Part shown: piece after piece, positions 24,026-52,003 of the stretch | How positions within the stretch are numbered: position 1 is the first letter of the stretch | How the letters are laid out: each line of letters opens with the position of its first letter | Assembly (NCBI GenBank): GCA_021432655.1 | Contig: MU271263.1 | Location: 62,001-114,003, forward strand | Origin: Atractiella rhizophila | Taxonomy: Eukaryota | Length of the DNA: 52,003 nucleotides | Direction of reading: 5' to 3' | Program-made: the position numbers and the translations under genes | The notes under the pieces: generated by a model | The model's database searches: none | Seen by the model: only the letters and a program-made list of their open reading frames with translations | Told to the model about the DNA's origin: nothing

Positions 24026-26978
24026 CTCACAATAATTTGACGAAAAAGTTCTCTGCAAGCTGGATTGGCAAGCAAATTGGGCCAGCTGAGCTCACCTTTG
24101 AGGCTCTTATACCCCTCTGTGTATCTCGGTCCACAAACCCTGTCACCAAACCCTGATACACGATCAAATTTGTACATGTGGGCTCTTTCTGGCTCGTATT
24201 CTGGTCCGAACCAGATCTTCGGCATGTCGATCGTGCGTAAGGAAAAAGCTGCTCGTCGCTTGCCGACCGACCAGACCTTCAATCGCGGTGAGCCAGGATG
24301 AAAGCCGAACGTTCAACACGTGCGCTCACATGTCCACAGAGAGTTCAACGCTACACGTGCAACTTTGCTTATCACCGCAGATTTAGGTCGAAACTCGCAC
24401 CATGCTTCAGCGGAATCGCGTTTCGCTTCTTTATCATCATCAGGTCCAAAACCCTCGCACGGTATCTTTCAGTACCCGCAGCTTAATATCGTTACCGTCA
24501 ATCCGAAACCAGAAACCTGCTGACAATCTGAGACTGTTACTGCGCTGGCAACTGAGTCCTAAATCTCCTTGCCTTGAGGATGAGCGCTAGTTTGAGCCTG
24601 TCCTTTGGACGGCTGGTTCATGGCTCCGGCTCCTATGGCCGTTTCCCTGCAAATGCACATTCCTTCCGATGGAAAGGAACATCAGTCCATTCCTGGCGCA
24701 GCTTAGGTCTGGTATTCGGCATTAATTTTGCATTGGTGACGTGAAATCTTTAATAGTGTATTTAAACAGATGCACTGCTACACTGGCACAAAGAACGGCA
24801 GTCTCCGTTGTTTACAGCTGCATCCTCCTTTATAAAACTCAACTTCATTTCCCATTGGCATTTGCAGCAGACCGAGGCATGTCCGGCGGCCCCAAACGTG
24901 CTCACCTAACTAATAACTGAAAGCCGAACCCTTTCCCCGACCTTGCCCTGCCCCCTTTTCCATCTTCCACCGTCTTGCCATTCAAAGCTTCGGCCTTGAG
25001 CTAAATTCTTTACGAGTAGGTCAGGTCGCGGCGCTGAACTCCTCACAAACTTGATGCTTGGGTCAGAAGCAGAAATAGATGGACGAGGATGGACAAGCTA
25101 GCACAAGCAATCCAGGCAGCCCTAGCCCTGATTCGCACTGAATGTCAACGTTTCCGAACTTTCCCAATTAGTCAAGAGCAGGGGGAGAGGAATGCGGTGA
25201 GAGTAATGAAATTAGCTGTGATTATATCACTCTTGGTCTAAGATTCTTGAGGGGGATTGGGGAGAAACGTGAAAGGGACCGTGTTGTAGATGTTATCTCT
25301 GATGTTACTCATCCGTGTATTTATTTCATCAGCAACATAACACTCAGGCTGCGCTCTAAGTCAACACGTGTGCAGGCTCCAGAACTATACATTCAAATGC
25401 GCGTAAGCAGGCTCTCTGAGCTCGACGCTAAGCACTTGGTGTCTACAACTCCTTGCTGCAGAAGTGAATTTTTTGTCAGCTGCCTTGGAAATAATATAGC
25501 TCCATTGATTTTATACCTAAGGTGCACCTTCCTCCAAGTGAAAGTAAGCACCATGCCCAAGACTTTCTTTCACAACGGTCTGCGCCAGCGCCAAATCAGC
25601 CGGACCCCAATCTCCATAAAACAAGTCACAATGGATTGAACCATTCTGTCTCGAAAATGTGCGTATAAGGTCCGTAAATCCCGTGGCTTGTACAGTACAA
25701 TACTGAACTCTCAGGTGTTTGATCTTTCGGAGCTGCGGACAGGCGAAGAAATCTAACGGGATCAGGTTGCTGTTCTGGTGACCTCCGTCAATGGACAACT
25801 CAAAGAGCCCCCTGAAGTTGGAGATATCCAACGGTGTTTCAAGTTGGAAGTCCCAAAAGGAGTTCCCTCTAAACCATTCAGACTTTTGAAACCACAGTCT
25901 CAAAGTGATGATGAAGGGGCGTGGTGTTGAAAGGTCAAGGACCTCGGGAAAACAACTATCCAGCTGCAAATGAAACAAATTCGGAGCATCAAGCATGATG
26001 AGTAGAAGAGGGGTAATATGAAAGTTTCGAAGCGAGAACCAATAAAGACTGGCTGGTCGCCAAGCTTGTGCAAGCGGAAGCGAATTGTAGTTCCACTTGC
26101 CAGCCTTCATCACACACTCATCAATGGACGGAGAAGTAGAAGGGTTTGCATCCAAGTCGATATATTTGAGTTTATGCCATGAGTGGGTATGCTCTAGAAA
26201 ATTGAGTAAAGCTTGCTGGGACCAGGAGCGGAGAATAAGGCTTTCCAATGTCGTGTACTCTGCTAAACCATGTAAAATGTCCTGCGGCTCTGATTTCCTT
26301 GGTGGACACCACAACTCAACGCGTGAAACAAGCTTCTGAAAAGTCCTCACATATCCAAACAGCTCGACAGGGTTTACCTTTTGATTCGCATCTTCCCATG
26401 TAAATTTATAGGACTGCCACAACCTCATTGGAAAAGGAAAATTTAGCAACTTTTCCAACTTTTTCAACGTTTCCAACTTTTCCCGTCCAAAATCGGGTTC
26501 AAATTGCAATGTTCTCAGACGGATGTGCCAATGTCGACAGACTTTTGAACACCGATGCCAAGTCAAAGTCTCTCGCCTTTTGTGCATCTGGTCCATTTGG
26601 AATATAGGATCGACGAGGCTCGACCTTGGTGCAACAGCCATCTCGAGAATATTATCCAAAAGCTCGTCGGGCAATTTTGAGATAAAAGCAGCCGATGGAA
26701 ACGTAGAAAGCTGAATAACAACAATATCACCATTGCGGTTGAGAGAATCGTTGAAGAGATCAACATCGAGCACGATAACCTGTCCCTTTTCTTTGAAATT
26801 GAGGTCGACATCTGTGGTTTCTAAGTACAGGAAACGGGCTGCATCAGAAGTGAGTATGATCGGAGGTTCTTCGACAGGTCCGGGGATTTGCATGTACCCA
26901 TCAAGGAAATAGATATGCAAGATGTCCGCGTAAAGAATCTTGGAGTGAAGATGAACCTGGGTCTTCAAAATCCCGGCT
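23688..26978. repeat. Segmental duplication copy B
   Basis: Collinear with 16874-20153. Confidence 0.95.
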
Positions 26979-27205
26979 AGTATAAGTGCCTGCCGTTGCT
27001 TTTGATGCAATAGATGTAGACAAACCCCCTGTACAGGCGTGTTATCCAGGAAAGATTCTGTGCAACTGATGTACAAGCGCCGACCAGCGTCATCAAAAGT
27101 CGAATCTCTGGGACTTTGATACAGGTGAACTAGAGGGTCGGGGATTCGAGTTTTGGACTGCATCGTGGCAGGACCTGCTGTGAGCAATTCAGTTTCTCTC
27201 AGCAT
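25517..27205 (-). CDS. F-box/LRR-like protein, copy B (562-aa uninterrupted ORF; possible upstream exons up to ~27871)
   Basis: F-box motif KLPDELLDNILE...CSKVCRHW. LRR-like segments LESLIL, LKYIDL and LFHLQL. C-terminal motifs IDGGHQNSNLIP and LFYGDW. Confidence 0.8.
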   Translation of the reverse strand: MLRETELLTAGPATMQSKTRIPDPLVHLYQSPRDSTFDDAGRRLYISCTESFLDNTPVQGVCLHLLHQKQRQALILAGILKTQVHLHSKILYADILHIYFLDGYMQIPGPVEEPPIILTSDAARFLYLETTDVDLNFKEKGQVIVLDVDLFNDSLNRNGDIVVIQLSTFPSAAFISKLPDELLDNILEMAVAPRSSLVDPIFQMDQMHKRRETLTWHRCSKVCRHWHIRLRTLQFEPDFGREKLETLKKLEKLLNFPFPMRLWQSYKFTWEDANQKVNPVELFGYVRTFQKLVSRVELWCPPRKSEPQDILHGLAEYTTLESLILRSWSQQALLNFLEHTHSWHKLKYIDLDANPSTSPSIDECVMKAGKWNYNSLPLAQAWRPASLYWFSLRNFHITPLLLIMLDAPNLFHLQLDSCFPEVLDLSTPRPFIITLRLWFQKSEWFRGNSFWDFQLETPLDISNFRGLFELSIDGGHQNSNLIPLDFFACPQLRKIKHLRVQYCTVQATGFTDLIRTFSRQNGSIHCDLFYGDWGPADLALAQTVVKESLGHGAYFHLEEGAP

Positions 27206-27922
27206 CCTCTATGCACATATTTCTAAACTTAGAGTTATCATCTCTCACGTCTATCAGTGCTCCTTGAGAGGACTTTGGCACTAACCTGGCTCAATCACGA
27301 CTGCGTTCGCGATTTGTGCCGAACTTTCCAAAGGAAGCAAAAAAACGAGCACACATGGGGCAATACGCTTTCAGTATAAGTGCAAAGACTCACAAAGTAG
27401 CAGTCTAGAAAGGGTTTTCGCAACGGTCGCCAGTCGTCCGTACGACTCCAACTTGAATCCAGGCGCGAAAAACTAAGGAACAGAGGTCGAAGGAGAAGCG
27501 GTGAGGGCGACCTTCAGACAGTGGGATTGGGGAGTTCAGAGCGGAGGTGGGTGAACACTAGTAACTTGCGTCCGAACGAACGACCTTCAGTTGGGGCGAA
27601 TTTTGACTGCTTTTCGGCTACGGGAATTCCGATCAAGGAAGTCAACGTTCGAAGAACTCAATCTGGCTCGATGCTCAATTGTTTGATCCCGTCTGAGGAT
27701 ACAGGCTTTCTCTAGTTCATTACATAATCGATGAAGCCATCCAACTATTGCCTTACGCTTAAGCGAAGGAGGTCTTTCAGTATCTCCTTCAGGGCCTTTT
27801 GGGGTGCCTTGGTATGGATAGTCATGATTTTCAAATCTTTCTTTGAGATTTGTCAGTTGGAAGAAATACATAAACGTCGTCAGCATCGTCAGAAATTCGA
27901 AATCACGTGTGCAGGCAGGGGT

Positions 27923-38841: not shown

Positions 38842-41711
38842 ATGGCCACCGCTGCCAATGCGACAAACGGAGTGAATGGCGCGAATGGACATGCGAATGG
38901 AGCGGGAGTTGCTGAGGTGAGCCTTGGTTGTCTGAACACATGAGTCGTAACGCTTTGGCACGGTGTTTTTCGATTTAATATCTTGCAAATGTTAATGAAC
39001 TATATGGTCATGATGTTTTTTGTGTGGTTGATGCCAGGTGTAAACCTTCGTTACATTTTGGTATGCCTGATGGGAAGAAATGATGTTCCGTAGAGGCGAG
39101 CGCAAAGGACGGAGGGCTGCGTTGACAGGCTCCCTACTGACATTTATCCAACACTTACTAACCAGCGCGATTGGAACAGGACGACAATCTGATTTACCCT
39201 CCACCAGAGATTAAAGTAATTGTCGACAAGACTGCTGCCTCTATTGCGGCAAACCCCAATCCACAGTCGTTCGAAGCCAAGGTTCGAGAACGAGCACGGA
39301 CTGACACTCGCTTTGCCTTCCTCCTTACCACAGATCCCTACTATGCTTACTATCAGAAGAAGCTGTCTGACTTGAGAGAGGGAAAGACGGAGGAGGCCAT
39401 AAAGAAGGTCGAAAAAAAGGCAGAGGAGAAAGCGGAGGAGGATGGTGACAAGGAGCCCTCGAAGCCGGAAAGAGATTTGGAATTTATCGTTGAGAGGGGG
39501 TTACATATTAATCATGTCGATTTGTGAGTGACTCTGAACTACATTTAAGGGGTTCTGTGAATTGAACCTTGTCGTCGCAGAGACATTATCCATCTCACAG
39601 CCCTTTTTGCCGCCCGTTCAGGAAGGCGATTCGTTTCCGAGCTCTCGCAAAGGGAGCGCCAAAACTACCAATTCGACTTTCTCCGCCCCTCTCACAGTCT
39701 CAATCGTTATTTTAATAAGCTTATCGAATTGTACACCAAGATTCTCATTCCGGACAAGGCAACTCTTTCCATGCTCGAACGTCGAGGAGGCGTCAACTTC
39801 TCAGGTTCTGAGGAAGAGAAGAGCCTTGCTGCGAGGAAAGAATTGCTGACGGATATCAACAAGCGCGTCGAGCACACGCGTTTTCAGCTAGGGAGGATCA
39901 AAGCCATCTCAGATCTGGAAGCAAAGGAGAGAATGGAGTTCGAAAGCATCGATTGGCAGGATTTCATCGTAGTATCTTCCGTCGAGTTTACAGAGGGAGA
40001 AGAGATCGGAATCGTTGAGCTCCCGCCCCCAATGAGCGTACAGGAGATAGAGAATATGAGTATCAAGGAGAAGAGGATGGCGGCGCTTGTCATGGAAGGA
40101 AAGGACGAAGAGGTAGCACTTGCGCAGAAAGCAGAGCAGTTGGCGGTTGTTGAAGAAGAGGAGGAGGACGAAGGTGTAGAGATGGAAGACGAGGTCAGGG
40201 AAGAGGAAGTTATCAAGGTGGCTGATACAAGTGGTGGTGTGGTGAAAGTGCGGAAAGACTACGTCCCGAAGTGTGAGTATAACTGGTTTTTTTTGTACGT
40301 TTTTCGCGTGCTGAAAGATACTGTTTGCTAGCAAAACGGCAGCCGAAAGTCCCCATGTCTCTCTGCCAAATTTGCGGACAGCAAGTACCCGATGCAGAGT
40401 TCGCGGAACACGTCCGAATAGAGCTCCTGGATCCTCGTTGGAAGGAGAAGAAGGCTGCCTTAGAAGCTCATCGAAGTGCGGCGAATCTGGCGACCGCTGG
40501 TTGGTTCTCCCTTTGCACAGTTGAAGCGTCCAATTGAAATCGAAATGTTAGGTACCGATGTTACAAAAAATCTGCGAGAGTTTGCAGCTGTGCGAACGGA
40601 TTTGTTCTCAACAACTGCAGAAGAAGAGGCGAAGAGGCAGGAGGCGGAAGCCAAAGCAAAGCAGAGGGAGAGGGAGAAGGTTGTCTGGGACGGTCATGCT
40701 GCCACGAGGGATGCAGTCACGGAACGATTCCAAACAGGTGTAAACCTGCAAGAACAGATCGAGGCCCTTCACAAGGCCAAAGGTCTTGTTCCGACGTGCG
40801 TCTTCCATGTCACCTTTTGACTACACTAAGTGATCATGGTTGACTGTCTGCTTAGGGAGGACACAGGCCTCCCAAAGATAGGTCCCGCCCTCCCTGGTCA
40901 ACCTCAAATTCTGGATCCCTCAGCCCCTATGCCGCCCCCTCTGCTTGCCTCCTCCGGGGCATCTTCCGGTGCGACCATGTTCGCCGCTCCCCAGCCAATG
41001 GCGGCTCCACCCTCGATGTCTGGCCAAGGAATGCAGCCTGCTCCAATTCATTTGGGTGGGATGGGATTCCCCACGCTCCCTCCTCAAGCGCAAGCCCAGA
41101 TGCAGTATCCCACTGTACCGCATGGGCTTCCTGCGCGGCCACCAGTCCTCAATCCTGGAGAGGGCATGCAAGGCCCTCCACCTCAGACACTCCCACCAAT
41201 TTCGTTTGCCAACTATTCAGGGCTTGGCGTGAGGCCTGCTGAGGGTCCGCCGGACGATGGCCCACCAGTGAAGAGAATGAAGGTGATGAAGTTGCCGCCT
41301 GGTCAATTTTATCCAGAGAGTGACTGGTTAACCATGAACCCTGTTTGTTCTTACCCTTGTCAACACGAAAGGAAGCTAATTCGCTTATCGTAGGATCCCG
41401 TCTCGATCGTTATCAACCTACCAAGCTACCCTGAGAAACCTGAATGGGGATGTAATGGGAGTGCGATTGTGCTGGACGACGTACCACTCAATCTGATGGC
41501 TGGTAGTTTAAGAGACAGGATTATGGTATGTGTTTCATCCACTTCCATTCTTGCTACCACTCACTTTGGTGTTCCGTAGCACAAAACTGGTTGTCCAGTT
41601 GCAAAGCAGCGTCTGCTATATGGTGGAAAGATACTCAGTACTGGTATCACGCTGGCGAGCCTCAACATTGACGATGGAGATATTATTACGTTGCAGCTCA
41701 AGCAAAAATGA
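38842..41711 (+). CDS. SF3A1: Splicing factor 3A subunit 1 (Prp21/SF3A1/Sap114): SURP domains, PRP21-like domain, C-terminal ubiquitin-like domain
   Basis: Motifs IYPPPEIKVIVDKTA, QFDFLRP, ESIDWQDFIVV, EHVRIELLDPRWKE and KVVWDGH, then a Pro-rich tract and a UBL C-terminus ending QLKQK*. First exon MATAANATNG...VAE splices in phase 0 to DDNLIY. Confidence 0.95.
39079..39144 (+). ncRNA. Candidate intronic box C/D snoRNA
   Basis: C-like ATGATG and D box CTGA, preceded by CAGGCTCCCT, which is complementary to the conserved 18S rRNA sequence AGGGAGCCUG. It lies in an unusually long (263-nt) first intron. Confidence 0.35.
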
Positions 41712-41861: not shown

Positions 41862-41934
41862 CGCCCAACGTGGGGCTCGAACCCACGACACTCAGATTAA
41901 GAGTCTGATGCTCTACCGACTGAGCTAGCCGGGC
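41862..41934 (-). tRNA. tRNA-Lys(CUU), intronless
   Basis: The reverse complement GCCCGGCTAGCTCAGTCGGTAGAGCATCAGACTCTTAATCTGAGTGTCGTGGGTTCGAGCCCCACGTTGGGCG folds as a canonical cloverleaf with anticodon CTT. Confidence 0.97.
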
Positions 41935-42809
41935 TGAATTGCACGCATAGCCTTTGTTTATACTTATCCAAACAAAGCAACAAAGTCTTTGTTTAACCCT
42001 GACTTGTGCCACAAGAAAAAAAAATAATGACTACATTATGCTTGCGTTTTTTTTGGTGCTATGAGGATTTGAAGAAGCTTCTTTGACCATCTCTAGAGGT
42101 CATGTGATGAATAGAGACCACTGACAAGACGATACCAAATTGAGTTAACCGTTTGGAGAATGGTCCGCAGAAAGGTTGGGTTGCGACGTTAGGCTACAGT
42201 GGGTAGGAAGAAGCCTCCTTCCGGGCCCATGAAGTGGCGTGTTGTTGTGTTGAAGGGCTTACTGACAGAATTCTAGAAGAGGCAGTAGAACAAAGAGGAG
42301 CGCTCGGTTTGATCATGGCCGGTTATGAGGAATGGAGGCTGGAGATTGAAGAGGAAGATGATTGAGAAGGGATTTCGAAGATGTCTGCCAGTGATCGAAG
42401 TAACCTCCGTCTCTTGGGTTGTTGCCCGCTGCCTCATGTGCCCTGTCAAAGATCCTATGCACATTCAGGATGGAGACCGAACCAGGCGCTATGCCGTTCT
42501 AGTTGAGACATTGGCGGAAATCAGCATCTGGATGTTCTGTATCTGACAACGTGCTCGTGATCTCCTCCGGAGGACCATCGAACTAATGTCATCCTCCTCT
42601 CGTCTTTCTCTCCTACATCAAGAACCAATCAGCAACAGCTCAATCCGTGCCAGGAAGAATAGGATAGACGGACCTTCCACGCTGCTTCCCAGTCTTCTCT
42701 GCGAGGTCTTCTGTGGCTCGATCTTCCCACAAACCTCCTTAAACGCTCACGTACCTCTCGCTTGTCTATGGGAGCGTAACAGCACAAGCGCATCTGCCCC
42801 ATCTCTTCA

Positions 42810-44588
42810 TCAAAGAACAGTTCCGGCTCCTCCTCTTTCTCTTTCGCATCCAGCTCTCCAGCTGCAAGGATCCCCGTCACTTCCTGGAGAAGCAGCTCCA
42901 CTCAGTCCCAAAATGACCCTCGCTTCCTCTATCTCATAATTCATGTCACTCTGATGATCGCCACAATCGCAAACTCGTGCATGCGAAAAGTCAAGGAGAT
43001 AAACTCTTTCCGATCCGAAGTAAAAGTTTTGAGTTCGAATATCGCCGTGAAGGACGCCGAATTCGTGCACTTTCTTCAACGCCACCACGGCTTTTTCCCT
43101 AGAAAGCGAGATAAAATATGCGTCAACCGATCAGTGACAAACCTACCTCGATGTGAATGACATCTTCTCGACATCCTGGTCGAAAGCACCTTTCAGTATT
43201 TCCATCAATATGACCCCGAACCGTTCCTCCACTCCTTCGTAGCTTCCATAAACCTTCGGGATATACTCCCCTTGTAGGTTCGAAAGTCGCTCGTATGCAG
43301 CGACTTCTTGTCGAAAGTAGTCCATATCGGTTAGGCTTCGATCTTTCATCCTTCTCAAACCTTTGTAGTACTTGACCGCTAACTTCTCACTGCCCAAGGT
43401 TGCTTCGAAAACCGTTGCGAATCCTCCCCACCCAAGGGCTTCGGCGACTTCCAACCGCTTCTCCCCCCAGAGCTTCGACTAGAGGTAGACATCAATAGCT
43501 GGCAGCTAGATGAGAGGAACAAACAATTATGCCAACTGGGCGGACTGGGTAAAGCTTCGAGTTAAGAACGGACAAAGTGAAAACGACATCCAGACCACAC
43601 TGAAAGGCAACGATTAGCGATCGTACCTACCGCGGAATGAGACCACTTACCGCAATGGCCAGGTTTCGTTGTTTGACGTCTGTGCGTCCTTTCTCCTTGA
43701 TGCCATGTAGCCCAGAAAGAGACTTCGTAGCAGGTGGAATTTGAGGTGCTGACGAGAGGGGAGGGTGATCGGAAGGCGGAAAAAGGATTGCATCGTCCAA
43801 ACACATGCCGACGATCGTTTTGATAACTCGAGAACCGACGACATTGTACCTATCGGAACACAATAGGTAGGATCGATCGGATGTGATGACTCGCTGGAAA
43901 AAGATGAAAGACGTTCCACCAAAGAGTAGGCCAAAGGTCGCGTTGTTTATGGACATCTTTTTCCCTAGCTTGGGAAATTGTTAGGTTGGTGAGAGAGAAG
44001 GACTGGACGAACTTTTGTCACTATTGAACGTGCTCCAGCTTCAGTTGCTTCGCCCGCGTGATACAGGTTGGTGCCATAACCATCGTCGCTCTTGCCCATG
44101 GCAACAATTTGGTCTCCATAGTTAGTAGAAATGCATAGGCTTTTGAGTTCGACTTGGACCTTGGTGTCCTGATCGACCGCGAACCTGCCGTCGGTGCGAG
44201 CACCTTGATTAGCGGGATCACGTTCAAATTCTAGGATCAAGTTAGTCGCTTCTTCGAAAGCATCCGTGATAGCAAGCCGCCAAGAGGCGAACGCCTGAGT
44301 ATTAGCGATGCTTTCGTCTCCGACAGGGTTTCGAGCGATAGCGCGCAAGTGAACGCGCAAAGACGTTTGAAGCTGATTTGAGGCGAGTTTGGATCCCAAG
44401 ATACGCTCTGTGGCGTCGCAAACGTCTTCGAGGAAGCGAGGTCGATGGCGGAGGTGATAGGGACGAAGTCTCGCATGCTCCGCTCTGAAGTTTTCGAGGC
44501 TGGCGGTTGGAGTCGAGTCTGGGACTTTCCTGAGTCGAGTATCCAAAGGAAGGACAGTGCGATCGAGGAGGTCGGCTATGGTGGACAT
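42810..44588 (-). CDS. PD-(D/E)xK-like nuclease + atypical kinase fusion protein (Crinkler-REase-kinase/Spok-like architecture), 5 exons; 3' end uncertain
   Basis: Nuclease-like part: RTDG...VQVELKS then SIVTK|LGKKMSINNATFGLLFGGTSFIFFQR. Kinase part: LGWGGFATVF, LAVK, QEVAAYERL...IPKVYG, HGDIRTQNF, LLDFSHA. Four GT-AG introns keep the frame. Confidence 0.75.
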
Positions 44589-44816
44589 GGCGACTCCAAC
44601 AGATTGCTTCGCATCGGGGCGGATACTGTGAGCAACAGGGTCCTTGTGGTCATCGGAGATCCTTACACGAGGAGGTTGTCGCAGGCTTAGTAATCAGTCA
44701 TCTCAACCCTCATGCCTCCAACATTGCAGTCAACCTGGAAAGCAAAACTCTCAACATGGAAGAAGGCGGCACTGTACAAAGAGACACTACTCCGATTCCT
44801 ACTTTTGTCGCAACTA

Positions 44817-47212
44817 TGCCTCACGCGACTCCTTCTAACAAGAGGAAGGCAGATAAGTCAGGGTTCACATCAAACAAGCGGATTCGCATCTTTCAGCGCG
44901 TAGCACGCTATCAGCAGCTCGATAGTCGCATCCAGGCTGAACCTCGTCCCACCCTAGTCCCAGTTCTGCGCCGCAAGGTACCCAACGGTAGCTATACCGT
45001 ACTTTCCGAAGAATTGAAGACGTTTCATGAGGAGGATTGGGAGGATGCGCAGACGCTCGAAGACTTTATGAAGCGCATGTACGAAGTAAGTGAACTCGTG
45101 ACGTTCTTAAGATAAAGAGCATGACGAAGCCTTCAGGACGTTTTGCCGAACTCAGTCGTCAGATATCACGTAGTGGACGAACCGTTGCAGTTATGGGGCA
45201 ACGTCACCCAAAAGGATTCCCTCAACATGGATGGAATGGTGACTCCTGCAAGTTCGAGGCAAAACCTGCGTACTCTAGTGCAACTTGTGGAGTGGAAGTA
45301 AGGACTGGGCGAAAGAGTCAAGTCGCAAAGGGGAAAGGCAGGTAGGCGGAGGCGCTGTCTATCCGCTCGCGGCGAGACCTCGCCTTTTTTTCTGGGGTTA
45401 TTTACTCGATGGGCCTCTCAACAACAAGAAGTACTGCTGGAACTTTCATTCCCGTGGATTGAAAGCGAATCCGAGAGTCGCCGACTGACTCTTCCTCTGA
45501 GGAATCACCGTCGCAAGCCTCTAAGAAGTCGCTTTCGATTGCAGGATCAACTATGTCACCGTCAGCATCCCTAACGAACCAGGCAACGTCCGCACAACCA
45601 GGATTCAAACTGGATCTAGGAGGTCGTTTGAACGGCTTCCAAGTTACGGAAACCGGGCTCCGCTCCAAGATCGTGGCAACGGTGCTATTCCAAAGTACTC
45701 AATCACGGAGACCGGAACACAGGTTCGGGCGTGCAAAAAGATTATCTGACGGGAGGGGATACAGAGTCATCAAGCATGTGTGGCTGGACAAGGAAGGATG
45801 AAGAACACCGTTGAGCGCTTTGCCAAGTGGAGACAGAAACTCAAGGAAGGCTCTTTGGATCTCCAGGGCCAATACTGGGAGTGGCTCGAACACGCTCCCC
45901 GTTCCCTGCTTTCATTTCCCCAGTTCTCGACGAGCAAGATATTCGAGGAATATGCTTCGTGGGACAAGGAAACACCCGCAGATTCAGGTGAAGGAGCTGA
46001 TTCCCGTTCTAATCTTCCACTCTATCATCGGCCTTCCTCTTGGAGCAGCGACGAAACTGCGAGGTCCTAGACACTTTCATTGGCGTTCTCAGGCGTGAGT
46101 CCCTCGCTTAACCCCGGTGACCGCGCTATCTGATGATTTCCGACAGAGTTAGGAACTCTGAATGATCACAACTTCGCACGTCGCGATGTCTCCCATGCGA
46201 ATATTTTCATGCGGGAATGGACACCGGAGCAAAAATAAACTGATACGACTCTTGGTTGGTTAAACGATTTTGATCTCTCAATCGACGTGGCCCAGTCGGG
46301 GGACACTGGCTCTGTTGAGGGTACACGGGGCGGTAACGAAAAGCAGCACGTTGAGATATCTGTGAGTAATATCTGACGTTGCATGGATTTCCTAATGTTT
46401 AGCAAGGGTACCTTTATTTTTCTGTCTCGAAGTGCACTACAGGCTATTTGGGACATCATGTGCAACCTAGGTAAAGACCATGGCATCATCTGGGGGGTCG
46501 TACTAGGTAAGTGGACGAGGTTGGTGACGACGACACGATCATGGACGATGCCGAAGGCGGAGATACAGTCATAGATGATGTCAGCGTCACCAACGACGAC
46601 GACATCAAAGGTGATGACGACATGGTAGAGGAAAGCAGCGAATCGTCTGGTGTGAAGTCTCCCCCAACACCTCCGAATCTATCCGACCTTTACACCGACA
46701 AACCATTGTTGACGACGTCGAATCGAATCCGTTCTCTTCTGCATATTTTACGGTTTCTGCCGTTTCGTCCCCCAGGAGAGCCGACCAATCCAGAGGACTA
46801 TGGAGACGTCCATGGCGCAAGGCTCTAGGAGGATCTATGATAACAGTGAGCTTTCTTTCGTCTTCGGTGTCGGACCTCTTCCTCGTAAAGGAAAGATTCC
46901 TATCCACTGGCTGATTGCGACGGCACTCCTCAAACTGCCCTCGTGAACAAACGTAATCTCCTTAGCTCTGCACTTCCATCAAGAGAATTCCACGCGGACG
47001 TCTCTGTGCTTCTAGGCAGTTACGCCGTCGCATAGAGAGAGGACATAAAGAAGGTATTGTCGTTACTCTGGGAAGTATCCCAACCACTTCGGCTCAATAT
47101 GGCAGAAGGCAGACATCGTGAAGCTAGTGCTCCGAAGGCCGAGGTTAGCAAGATCCTCGAAAGCATGATAGACGCGTTGCAAAAGGGGAAGAAGAGCTTC
47201 GGGAAGCCATAG
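44817..47212 (+). pseudogene. Fungal-type protein kinase (FunK1/Pkinase_fungal) pseudogene
   Basis: Motifs RPRLFFWGYLLDG...WNFHSRG, FGRA...VIKHVW, RRDVSHANIF...GWLNDFDLS and GTFIFLS. In-frame stops at ~45486, ~45799 and ~46235. HRD is changed to RRD. Confidence 0.75.
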
Positions 47213-48593
47213 CGGGGACGGAGACATTGTCACGTGATCCCACCATCTGCCACAATTTCATTTCGATTTCACGGTCACCTTGATGCTTTTTCTGTGAATG
47301 GACTGCTGCTGTGCGAAGTTATTACAGTTTGCTGTTGCATTTTGGAGCTTCAAAGTTAGTCAATGCTGCAGCATCATTTGATCAGTTTGATTTACTTCAT
47401 ACCTAGAGACTTCCTGAGATGAGAGGGATTGAGCCGAGTGACAGAAGTGAGCAGGAAGTGAAAGCTTTCATGATCAGGGAATGGGAATTGAGTGGGTAGA
47501 AGTAGGTAGTAGGTGCGTAAAGAACGAGCATGTGGCGGCTTCAGCAAGAGGTTGCCAAAGAAAGGAGAAGAGATTCCCATCATGTCAAGACTGCTTTCAA
47601 GACGAGAGAGGAGAGGATTTTCGTCAGTACCTCCCGTTCAATCGACCGACAGAGGGCACTCTTGATCAAATGGCGCTAATTGATCCGCCTATTCATTGCA
47701 ATTCATGATATTTCTGTTCTCTGAGGTAGTTCCATTCCCTTTTCGAATACAATCGGTCTTTAGAACGGAACAACAGCGTCCTAAATCATCCAAACTTTGG
47801 CATTCTCGGCGGTGGGGTGCTCCTTTGAATTGCAGAGTCTATCTCTAACACGGAATACGGGGAGTGGTTGTTTGGAAGTGGTTTGCTCATGAAAAGGGCT
47901 GGTGACAGTGCTCGTGTGAGGAGCATCTTTGGAACCTGAAGATTAAGGGTAGAATAAAGTCAATTTATTCGACGGATGGAATAATAAAGGGAAAAGAATG
48001 GAGATACGAGAACAGGGCAACAGAAGAGACTTGGAAGGTTAAAGATAAAACAAACACAGCCAAATCGAGACCTGCCATTTCGGTGCTCGTTGACCACGAA
48101 CGTCTGTTGGTGAGATTGCCGACGACCTGTGTCCAGAGTGGAGTTTGAACGCACCTTGAAGAAATCATTGTTAGGAAAAGTCATTTCGAATATCGTGCGA
48201 GTAAGGCCATTTTATGAGTTGGACGTCGCAGAAAGTAAGTTTCAATTCCCTCTCAAAAGGTCAAGATGTTGTGCAGGAAAGGCTGCATGTAGAAGTAAGA
48301 GAGACGGGGTTGTGTGGTTGTTCTTGGACTTCATGAGAGGATTGAGATCTACATTCACAAGTTCCATCCATTGCAATGGTGGACGTACGTGGCAGAGCAG
48401 GGATTCCAAATAGCCTTCACACGTATATTAGGTGAAGGATAGACACATAGCCGTGCTCTCTGTGAAGCCGCATATGAGGAAGCGGCAAAAATAGTGATGA
48501 GCTTCCGAACGCGATTTCCAATTGATGATCATAAGCCTTTGTCTCCTTGCTCTTGACAAAGCTAACACGCCGACCATTCATTTAGATTGCATC

Positions 48594-48600
48594 TATATAA
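48594..48600 (+). promoter_or_regulatory. TATA-like box upstream of the patatin-NLR
   Basis: TATATAA ~100 bp upstream of ATG 48702. Confidence 0.35.
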
Positions 48601-48701
48601 CCCACAGAATCGTTGATGAAATTGGTCTTGGAAACCCATTTGACTTCAGAAACTTTTCTCCTTCCTTCAACAACCGCATCGCAATACATCGCTTTACCTA
48701 C

Positions 48702-50470
48702 ATGTCTAAAAATCCGGTCAAGGTCTTTGAAGTGCCCGAAAATATCAAGAAGGCCAATCCGTTAGGATTGCGGGTCCTTTGCATTGACAATGGCGGCATC
48801 CGCTCCTTTTCCGCTCCGTACATGCTTGAACAAATTATGCTTCAAGCCAGGCACCTTCTCAAGGTGCCAGAAGGCAAAGATCTTCGTCCCTGCGATGTTT
48901 TTGATCTAATCTGTGGGACTTCCACTGGTGGATGGATCGCACTCATGCTCGGCAGACTGGGAATGACTGTTCGACAATGCATTGCAGCGTACGAAGAGAT
49001 CATGGAGAACGTGTTTTTGAATAACGCCTCAAGCTCCAGCGACGAGCACGCTTACTCAGCGAAAAAACTCGAAGAAACTACTACTATTCCTTCGCGACGG
49101 CCGGGTCAGTACTCGTCGTGGCGCATCGTGGAGATAAAGTGGAATATTTGGGCGTGAAAGGAAATGGTCCTGTGAAGTTTGTGAAAGTCTCAGTGGATGG
49201 GTTACCGAAAGACTGTGCGCTTGCACTCTTCAAGGATTCATATCAGAGAGCGGATGGTTTCTCGCTACTGCTTGTTGAGTGGCTGGTTGAACAGCTAGAC
49301 TTCCATGCTCTATCAATCAAGCTATTCGCTCTGCGTGCTGATGAGGATCCAGTTATGACACTCGAAGACTTAGTAGACAACTGGAAAAAGAAAAAGACAG
49401 ACGTTTTATGGGATGAAGATAGTGAAGAGATACCCACCCTCCAAAAATCCATATCGTTCTCCCTCCATTCTCCTGCTCTCAAGAAGCAGGGGGTGTGTGC
49501 TGTCTTTGCACTTGCACTACTTTCTTGGGTGCCAGACGGTCTAGCCCACAATGACCTGTCAGCACTCATTTCCAGGTCTTACGAATCTCAGGATATCTTC
49601 AAAGTCATTGCTGTGATTTCAAAGATTGGACTTGCCGATAACATCAAAGGTAGGATCCATATGCTCGCTCCTATCCGTGAATACCTCAACGAACTTGTCT
49701 CTCAGTCCAAATCACCATTTTCAAGGGATGTGGCTTGGTCGCTCTTGCCTCTCGGAAACCATCTCATGCAGAAAGCTGAGTCAAACATCAAACAGTTCGA
49801 AGTCGGCAAGAATCATTTTGCATTGCTTCTCTTCCGTGAACGGTATCCGAATCTTGAACATGTCCTTCTCAAAAGCATATCTAACCTGCCGGACCCTTTA
49901 CCAATCCTTCACCACTTGGAGAACACGTCTGAGTTCCTATGCCTGAAACATCGGCTCTCAACTGCACTCTTCGAGCAGGCGATGTTTGTCGTGAACTTGG
50001 GGCTGGGAATGCTGCTCTCTCTAGGTCACAGAGAGTCTGAATGGTTAAGACTAAAGTGTTCGCTGAGTATGTCTCTTGGCCAAAGTTTTTACAACCAAGG
50101 AAAGAATGGGGATGCTGTCAAGGTGTTCAAGGAGGCAAAGGTGCTCTACATTGAAGTGGGAGATCGACTGGGTCAAGCCCACTGCATTTGCAACATTGGG
50201 GAGATTGATTTTCGATGTGGGCGGAATGATGATGCTTTGAAGGCGTACGAGGAGGTGAAGGAGCTCTACATAGAAGTGGGAGATCGACTGGGTCAAGCCA
50301 ACTGCGTCCGGAACATGGGGGCGATTGATTTTCGATGTGGGGGGAACGATGACGCTCTGAAGGCGTACGAGGAGGCGAAGGCACTCTATGTGGAAGTTGG
50401 TGACCGCAGAGGTGAAGAAGTCTGCTGGAGATCAATAGCTGATGTATGGTGCATTGTTCAAGAGCAATAA
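48702..50470 (+). pseudogene. Patatin-(NB-ARC)-TPR NLR-like gene with an internal deletion and frameshift
   Basis: Patatin motifs LRVLCIDNGGIR and DLICGTSTGG stop near 49080. The next frame begins at a sensor-1-like VLVVAHRG, followed by ALALF, LDFHALSIKL, MLAPIRE and TPRs. There is no Walker A/B or patatin DGG. Confidence 0.78.
50101..50460 (+). repeat. Three 120-bp tandem repeats encoding 40-aa TPR units
   Basis: ctcta(c/t)...gaagt(g/t)gg recurs at 50144, 50264 and 50384, giving LYIEVGDRLGQA repeats with high DNA identity. Confidence 0.92.
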
Positions 50471-50521: not shown

Positions 50522-51910
50522 TTATTCATGATACGTATAGGCTGAGATCCAATCTATGTCTAGGGCATCCTCATACCACATCAGAGGAAACTGCTGCTTG
50601 TCGTTCTCGGTGTTATCCCTGCTGTACCTTCCAGCATGAAAATGCTTCCAAGGGTGAAACCCGAAACATGAACTTTGAGGTTTAAATGCAAACCCAGTGT
50701 ATAGCTGCCGGCCAACCTCTATCACACGCAGTTCTTCGACTTCTGTCCATTGTCCGTAGAAGAGCCTAACACGAACAGAAACCGTCCGAACACCAACATT
50801 CCGGTGTTGAACGAAATCAAGGAACCCGTGAAAATCAAATAGGCAGTAGTTCAAATCAAGACAATCCAGCTGAGTGATGTTAACCAGTTGAAAAAAGTTC
50901 TCTGGTAAGATATTGCTGTTTTCGTGTCCTCCATCAACATATAGATGGGAAAGCCGGGCGCAGCCGGATAGTATTAAAGGCTTGTCAAACACAACTTGGT
51001 TAACGTTAAAGATCCGGTTCGGTTCATAACGTACGGAGAATGCTCGCAGTGCATGTTGTTGTTGGGCAGAGAATTGAGGAACTGGGCCACTAGGGCAAAT
51101 ATGTAGGTTAGCTGTCTGAACCGAGATATTAAAGAAAGAAGTCATGAAAACTGGGCTGGCATCCTCGACCCGCAGCTGCCTAAGTTTCATGCGTCCGAGG
51201 TCGTGTTCTTCGAAAATCACTGAACAAAGAGGTGTATGCAATTGTCCTAGTCTAATGCTGATAAGATTTGGACGAGATCGGCTATTGAGCAAGAAAGAGA
51301 TGACCATCAACTCGTCCCAACCAATCAGGGTCAAATAGTTGATGTCGTACAGCTGCGCCAGTTCCAGCAATAACGAACGTTCCTGAGCCATGGGATAAAC
51401 GAGAGTCAAGCAACACACTGACTGTTGATAGATTCTAACATTTGAGGTCAATGTATTGAGAGAGATGTTTTCCTCCAAGTCGGAATAGGTGTAGTCCATG
51501 CGGAACCAATACCTTTGAATAACGGGGTTTCGCTTCAAAAAATCAAGCTTTCTGTGTGCATTAGGCAAATCAGGCGTTATTGACCTCAGATGCAGCCACC
51601 AACTCCTGCATACTAACCTGTAGCTCGACAAATCATAGTTGGCATCGGCGGCGGCATGACCAAAAATGTTGGCAGCGGCGGCGGCATGAACAAAAATGCG
51701 GTCCAACAGCTCAGGAGGCAGAGTAAGGATAGATCCCGCTGCCCCCACTGTAAATAAACCAATAATAATTGTGGCGCCCTTTCCCCGTCCCCAGTGCACA
51801 CGGTGATGACCGGAACTTGTCAATGGAAAAGAAGCAAGCTCCCGCCAGCCTTCGAAGCTGCATCGATGCCTCGACCCAGTTACCGGAACAGAAGTCACTT
51901 TCCACAAAGG
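50522..51910 (-). pseudogene. F-box/LRR-like gene of the same family as 25517-27205, 5'-truncated at the telomere
   Basis: F-box motif LTLPPELLDRIF...YRLVCRSW and family motifs VDGGHENSNILP and LFYGQW. The frame is open to 51910 and there is no in-frame ATG before the F-box. Confidence 0.72.
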
Positions 51911-52003
51911 TTAGGGTTAGGGTTAGGGTTAGGGTTAGGGTTAGGGTTAGGGTTAGGGTTAGGGTTAGGGTTAGGGTTAGGGTTAGGGTTAGGGTTAGGG
52001 TTA
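51909..52003 (+). repeat. Telomere (TTAGGG)n
   Basis: GG followed by 15 perfect TTAGGG units and TTA at the window end. Confidence 0.99.

Follow-up and report, generated by a model that had tools for sequence, protein, structure and literature searches.

Our analysis points to a gene of the fungus Atractiella rhizophila in which a domain found only in this lineage is joined to a small protein kinase. The window, that is, the whole stretch of DNA analysed, comprises 52,003 nucleotides (nt) of contig MU271263.1 (positions 62,001 to 114,003 of the forward strand, GenBank assembly GCA_021432655.1), and the gene lies on its minus strand at 42810-44588, 7-9 kb from a (TTAGGG)n telomere. With a probability of about 0.6, we read it as an expressed, lineage-restricted, multicopy subtelomeric gene that fuses an orphan domain to a truncated, catalytically complete-looking kinase. 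The initial annotation had described an apparently intact fusion of a nuclease to a kinase, with the architecture of the Spok meiotic drivers and of the Crinkler effectors, a reading that we regard as possible but unsupported.

The gene is real, transcribed and spliced. It runs from an ATG at 44588 to a TGA at 42812-42810 in five coding exons that form a single open frame, and its spliced product, with borders set by the RNA joints, has 529 amino acids (aa). Contigs assembled from four public runs were aligned to window positions 42500-44900; among these runs X1 is a DNA run and X3 is of unstated kind, its contigs being spliced. Runs X6-X12, which have small word shares, do not enter the evidence. 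All four coding introns appear as GT..AG joints (read on the minus strand) in contigs of X3; the joint of intron 4 is also seen in X4 and X5 and that of intron 3 in X5, and the spliced public paralogue P0005 implies the same intron 4 junction. The X4 and X5 contigs are 95-99% identical to the window and may therefore derive from alleles or close paralogues. The five exons and stop-free splicing of the initial annotation hold, as do its end coordinates, and the RNA data that it had named as a check now cover all four coding introns. The features of the gene are these:

44013..44588, minus strand: coding exon 1, residues 1-192, orphan N-terminal region; donor at 44012 set by the X3 joint 43968->44013
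44190-44192 and 44142-44150, minus strand, within exon 1: codon of D133 and codons of E147-L148-K149, respectively
43969..44012, minus strand: intron 1, 44 nt, GTTCGT..CCCAAG, X3 joint
43965-44012, minus strand: intron 1 with the alternative acceptor 4 nt downstream, 48 nt, X3 joint
43651..43968, minus strand: coding exon 2, residues 193-298, remainder of the orphan domain (KKM...GLLFGGTSFIFF...) plus a linker rich in Pro and Ser
43600..43650, minus strand: intron 2, 51 nt, GTAAGT..TTTCAG, X3 joint 43599->43651
43525..43599, minus strand: coding exon 3, residues 299-323 (25 aa), X3 joints on both sides, the 3' joint also in X5
43479..43524, minus strand: intron 3, 46 nt, GTTTGT..CTCTAG, joint 43478->43525 in X3 and X5
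43147..43478, minus strand: coding exon 4, residues 324-434 with the last codon split, kinase N-lobe
43099..43146, minus strand: intron 4, 48 nt, GTAGGT..TTCTAG, phase 2, joint in X3, X4 and X5
42810..43098, minus strand: coding exon 5, residues 434-529 and the TGA stop, with the catalytic loop, DFS and a tail of ~57 aa
42613..42673, minus strand: intron in the 3' untranslated region, 61 nt, joint 42611->42673 (cut +1) in one X3 contig

The X3 contig with this last joint also carries the joint of intron 4. A splice model drawn from the sequence only, with donors at 44021 and 43536 and a product of 522 aa, was replaced on the RNA joints, which place the two donors at 44012 and 43524. We predict an intracellular protein with neither a signal peptide nor a membrane segment (maximum 19-residue hydropathy 1.47), and its first 40 residues contain no hydrophobic N-terminal segment (maximum 12-residue hydropathy 0.99).

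Whether the two halves are made as one polypeptide turns on intron 1, which has two acceptors 4 nt apart (..CCCAAG/CTAG/GG.., with slashes at the cuts). Each is represented by one X3 contig, the 44-nt joint at a depth of 60.6 (20 letters on the shorter side), the 48-nt joint at a depth of 34.2 (25 letters). The 48-nt form shifts the frame and, by computation, meets a stop after 197 aa with the tail GKRCP, so that a joined product requires the 44-nt form, whose support is real but thin. The claim of an intact fusion is not confirmed as it stands: it needs the in-frame joint, which is seen, whereas the other tandem acceptor yields the 197-aa product. It is conceivable, but in our judgement quite unlikely, that this short protein is the functional product, the kinase exons either going untranslated or being what is left of a fused or decayed gene. 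P0006, a public hypothetical protein of A. rhizophila, is identical to exon 1 at 192 of 192 residues and carries the tail of the 48-nt form, the 91% paralogue P0001 has been modelled likewise, as 197 aa, with the kinase exons outside both models, and the 48-nt joint does occur in X3. However, the frame-keeping joint occurs as well, in the contig of greater depth, introns 2-4 are spliced in frame, and every catalytic residue of the kinase is kept. An early stop upstream of several spliced introns normally marks a transcript for nonsense-mediated decay, and this fate would be expected of the 48-nt form, whose stop falls five codons into exon 2 and is followed by three more spliced introns.

The C-terminal half bears the motifs of a protein kinase: GWGGFA at residues 339-344, AVK at 357-359 (Lys359), H451-G-D453-x4-N458 and D470-F-S472. 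Exon 4, which contains the glycine-rich loop (G-loop), Lys359 and the probable alpha-C Glu381, matches the Pfam profile Pkinase (PF00069) over positions 2-85 of 263 (19.6 bits, E = 6.7e-4), and exon 5 matches it over positions 108-151 (17.3 bits, E = 3.4e-3). P0005, a spliced, partial A. rhizophila protein that is 59% identical to exon 5, aligns along the entire kinase of the window protein with all of its catalytic residues conserved, and scores 38.2 bits over profile positions 3-153, above the curated Pkinase cut-off of 31.7 bits. The same protein matches Bud32 models at 1e-7, RIO1 at 1.5e-4 and Pkinase_fungal at an E-value of 0.15. Among the bacterial Ser/Thr-kinase models of PADLOC, exon 4 matches mad6 (7.6e-9) and PD-T4-6 (3.1e-7), and exon 5 matches PD-T4-6 (2.5e-5). 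The minimal C-terminal kinase of the initial annotation (GxGxxA, VK, HGD, DF) is supported by its motifs and by the profile matches of exons 4 and 5 and of P0005.

In both exon 5 and P0005 the Pkinase match stops at profile position 151-153 of 263. The [AS]PE motif is absent from the protein and the distal C-lobe is missing, about 57 residues following DFS; a complete motif set, the lack of APE and this short tail together indicate a truncated kinase with a full catalytic set. The matches show residues ~326-478 to be a predicted kinase domain of truncated Hanks type, in the short format of Bud32 and RIO, and all of the residues for ATP binding and phosphate transfer are, by motif, kept, namely the G-loop, Lys359, a non-RD HGD loop, Asn458 and the Mg-binding Asp470. 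Such a kinase would be an active phosphotransferase that does not require phosphorylation of its activation loop.

The N-terminal ~300 aa appear, from sequence comparison, to be an orphan with relatives in Atractiella only. An exhaustive phmmer search with exon 1 against 1,835,955,588 representatives returned three matches at E <= 0.001, all from A. rhizophila. Word-based searches with exons 1, 4 and 5 gave no relatives beyond Atractiella proteins, and among longer proteins none of 1659 candidates was related to exon 1. Pfam contains no family for exons 1, 2 or 3 at E <= 10 (a sub-piece of exon 1 gave one irrelevant match, at 0.11), PADLOC and NCBIfam contain none for exons 1 or 2, and neither phmmer nor a profile built from a four-sequence alignment found anything relevant to this region in the PDB. 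In JGI metagenome contigs, 249 pattern matches to exon 1 included no relatives, and the six loci matching exon 4 were all generic kinases that matched the G-loop region or a short stretch. The N-terminal domain spans intron 1 and was always searched as two unspliced exon pieces, which lowers the sensitivity of these searches. In the ESM Atlas, the best hits of exon 1 (0.90) were unnamed bacterial clusters, at a recognition of 2172 against the tool's mark of 2300, and those of exon 2 (0.88) were unnamed clusters of Ascomycota; both were taken as leads only and not used as evidence. The orphan domain (~residues 1-250, exons 1 and 2) might serve the kinase as an effector or targeting module, or might be its substrate in cis.

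The nuclease proposed in the initial annotation was read from strings that do exist in this region, T132-D133, E147-L148-K149 and, at the start of exon 2, KKM...GLLFGGTSFIFF. As a nuclease motif, TD...ELK does not exceed chance: 67% of 5000 shuffled versions of the N-terminal 300 aa contain D-x(8-25)-[DE]xK one or more times. With the motif at chance level and no profile or sequence link of exons 1 and 2 to any nuclease family, the nuclease assignment is unsupported, and we consider it doubtful that the N-terminal domain is a PD-(D/E)xK nuclease.

The proposal as a whole is that of a restriction endonuclease (REase)-kinase conflict protein, in which a DNA-damaging PD-(D/E)xK nuclease (D133, E147, K149) would be kept in check, in cis or in trans, by the kinase; this would make the gene a single-gene toxin/antidote, a drive element or a nonself-killing factor. 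We think this unlikely, both for the protein and for the role that would follow from it. With a putative D...ExK strand pair ahead of a short kinase, the protein reproduces the order described for Spok and Crinkler proteins, and V-Q-V-E-L-K alternates hydrophobic and polar residues, as would a beta strand bearing (D/E)xK. All four aligned family members share T132-D133-G134 and, ahead of it, the helix block FEEAT..L.LEF without any change, and the family is multicopy, lineage-restricted, decaying and subtelomeric. However, the aligned members are close paralogues, so the invariance of the block says little, and the chance level of the motif, the blank results for exons 1 and 2 in Pfam, the PDB, NCBIfam and PADLOC and the confinement of the exon 1 matches to Atractiella all speak against it. 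The entire protein contains no QxxxY and, ahead of the kinase, no cluster of Cys and His; Cys residues are closely paired only at 477/479 and 512/518, both after the kinase core. An Atlas cluster at rank 9 for exon 2 (0.84), in which 24% of members are labelled SPOK2_N, is a weak lead in favour of the proposal, its score falling under the tool's threshold for anything beyond a lead.

The literature invoked for that proposal was rendered correctly (PMC6660238; PMC5289972). SPOK3 is there laid out as a coiled coil, a domain of unknown function, a PD-(D/E)XK domain with QxxxY, a Cys/His cluster and a kinase resembling eukaryotic-like kinases; the Spok mutant K240A loses killing, D667A is toxic, and the 282 homologues used came from Ascomycota (PMC6660238). 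Kinase-mutant SPOK1 is reported to be toxic in E. coli and in yeast via DNA damage (PMC9972908). REase-kinase domains make up about one sixth of Crinkler C-termini, and in these effectors the kinase is thought to regulate the nuclease (PMC5289972).

The window protein resembles SPOK1-4 in combining on one polypeptide a putative D...ExK region with a following short kinase that is like the eukaryotic-like kinases (PMC6660238, PMC9972908), and its family, like theirs, is multicopy and patchily distributed. It differs from the Spok proteins in lacking both QxxxY and the C-x3-C...H...H cluster before the kinase, in its length of 529 aa, whereas the kinase domain of SPOK3 alone reaches residue ~700, and in being a basidiomycete protein known from its sequence, the homologues in PMC6660238 being from Ascomycota. 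No homology to Spok appeared in the phmmer search with exon 1 or in the word searches with exons 1, 4 and 5, a Spok profile not having been applied. With Crinkler REase-kinase effectors such as Phytophthora CRN8 it shares the proposed order of REase then kinase (PMC5289972); unlike them it has no N-terminal header or secretion signal (exon 1 in Pfam at E <= 10; hydropathy) and no REase profile match, is predicted to be intracellular and comes from a root-associated fungus. Without QxxxY, the Cys cluster, a header or detectable homology, the protein cannot be filed in either family.

The short format of N-lobe, catalytic loop, metal-binding Asp and brief tail is that of the minimal kinases Bud32 and RIO; P0005, however, falls far under the cut-offs of those families (31.7 bits vs 125 for Bud32) and generic Pkinase matches best, the HxDxxxxN spacing of the window protein is of Hanks type, and its kinase is fused to a 300-aa orphan region. 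FunK1 kinases (Pkinase_fungal, PF17667) are likewise a lineage-expanded fungal family, of which a broken member adjoins the gene upstream on the opposite strand, but the exons of the window gene have no Pkinase_fungal match at all and P0005 no better than the weak one given above. The bacterial defence kinases mad6 and PD-T4-6 give the lowest E-values for the kinase exons; these matches are restricted to the generic kinase core, with neither architecture nor context shared, and so are no evidence of a shared function.

Several results weigh against an orphan domain fused to a kinase. The joint of exons 1 and 2 behind the fusion is that single X3 contig, whose shorter side spans 20 letters, and the competing acceptor leads to the 197-aa product, the form in public annotation. 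Exons 4 and 5 each fall below the Pfam cut-off when taken singly, and only their paralogue P0005 passes it. No full-length relative is annotated, the architecture being known from this locus and from paralogue fragments. AlphaFold2 gave unusable models, with a predicted local distance difference test (pLDDT) score of 36.3 for exon 1 on the four-sequence alignment and of 40.6 for P0005 on three rows; since the kinase, serving as a control, failed too, the exon 1 result reflects the shallow alignment and says nothing about its fold.

The gene belongs to a family of at least seven loci, several of them decayed or mis-modelled. Atractiella rhizophila is a basidiomycete of the Pucciniomycotina, and the six public relatives all bear its name and lie on contigs that differ in length from one another. 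In P0001 and P0006 exon 1 is intact; P0002 is without the stretch bearing D...ELK, P0003 has deletions and P0004 runs in frames that the window model treats as non-coding, so that each of these three is either decayed or mis-modelled. P0005, which is more diverged, is a fragment with the kinase only. No second copy was found in the window by tblastn. In the DNA run X1, one stretch is covered both by an exact contig and by a second contig that shows 44 differences and five gaps; summed contig depth was not equated with copy number. The initial annotation had proposed a copy-number check, and in place of a single-copy syntenic ortholog we find a multicopy family in Atractiella alone. This pattern fits a conflict gene, and equally any subtelomeric family.

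An alternative that we consider improbable is that the gene, though transcribed, has no function, being one copy of a subtelomeric repeat family in decay, and that its open frame is a recent survivor. Three of the six public relatives look frameshifted or deleted, the paralogous X1 contig has its five gaps within 433 nt, and the adjoining FunK1-like gene is broken. On the other hand, the 529-aa frame is open across four introns with its catalytic motifs intact, three runs, two of them naming different studies, contain expressed and spliced close relatives, and synonymous changes account for half (8 of 16) of the coding differences listed against related contigs, a small selected sample in which 40 of 148 differences are shown.

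For the expressed fusion of orphan domain and kinase, the restriction to one lineage, the duplication together with a FunK1-like gene, the frameshifted copies and the subtelomeric site beside a patatin/TPR gene would fit a fast-evolving, dispensable function, and the family pattern may reflect nonself or conflict biology. At its most specific, such a conflict would make the gene a basidiomycete single-gene killer, with a divergent nuclease-type toxin and a built-in kinase antidote, the tandem acceptor of intron 1 setting the ratio of the 197-aa to the full-length protein. A 4-nt splice choice would then give both poison (the kinase-less form) and antidote (the self-protected protein) from one gene, and past conflicts, of drive or of allorecognition, would have left their mark in the spread to several chromosome ends and in the decaying copies. 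We hold this to be highly improbable, in its splice-choice and past-conflict elements as in its core.

Taken as they stand, these results correct the public gene model, which annotates a hypothetical protein of 197 aa at a locus that can encode a 529-aa orphan-domain kinase, and they define a small, Atractiella-only subtelomeric family. If the N-terminal domain turned out to be a nuclease under the restraint of the kinase, the scheme of Spok and Crinkler proteins, in which a kinase regulates a toxic nuclease, would reach into the Basidiomycota, and the gene would offer a compact system for tests in yeast. No description of the family, or of a Spok-like gene in Pucciniomycotina, turned up in the literature, most subscription journals being outside the scope of that search.

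The subtelomeric setting given in the initial annotation is confirmed, as the window ends in (TTAGGG)n and all relatives are from a basidiomycete. It had also called this the only evidently intact gene in the terminal 10 kb, which is not supported, since open frames of 481, 218 and 462 aa sit nearer to the telomere. The neighbouring features are these:

41862-41934, minus strand: tRNA-Lys(CTT) gene, ~0.9 kb downstream of the gene's stop codon
44756..46500, plus strand: divergent FunK1-like (Pkinase_fungal) gene, broken, with a Pkinase_fungal match and an in-frame TAA at 46236-46238
48501-49157, plus strand: Patatin frame, 218 aa, E = 6.9e-9
49025-50470, plus strand: TPR_12 frame, 481 aa, E = 5e-18, with a 120-nt tandem repeat at 50104-50343
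50522-51910, minus strand: open frame of 462 aa abutting the telomere repeat, with a weak F-box-like match (E = 0.015)
51910..52003, no strand assigned: telomere repeat (TTAGGG)n at the window end

The FunK1-like neighbour matches Pkinase_fungal at an E-value of 0.0016 over profile positions 305-356 of 387 when its stop is read as X. The TAA separates the catalytic loop from the DFD motif, and the frames upstream of it are fragmented. Its 5' part has been duplicated together with the orphan-kinase gene, a paralogue contig spanning 44325-44604 and 44709-44900. No terminal or inverted repeats flank the latter gene, and there is thus no sign that it sits in a transposon.

The overlapping Patatin and TPR_12 frames (48501-50470, plus strand) have a layout like that of NLR-type genes in fungi; the 352 aa that separate Patatin from TPR_12 showed no detectable nucleotide-binding domain. 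A frame of 563 aa at 25517-27208 on the minus strand also has a weak F-box-like match, similar to that of the frame next to the telomere. On the inner side of the gene, a frame at 39561-40331 (plus strand) contains Surp and PRP21-like domains, as in a housekeeping gene of the splicing-factor type, and its position would put the first ordinary core genes ~12 kb from the telomere.

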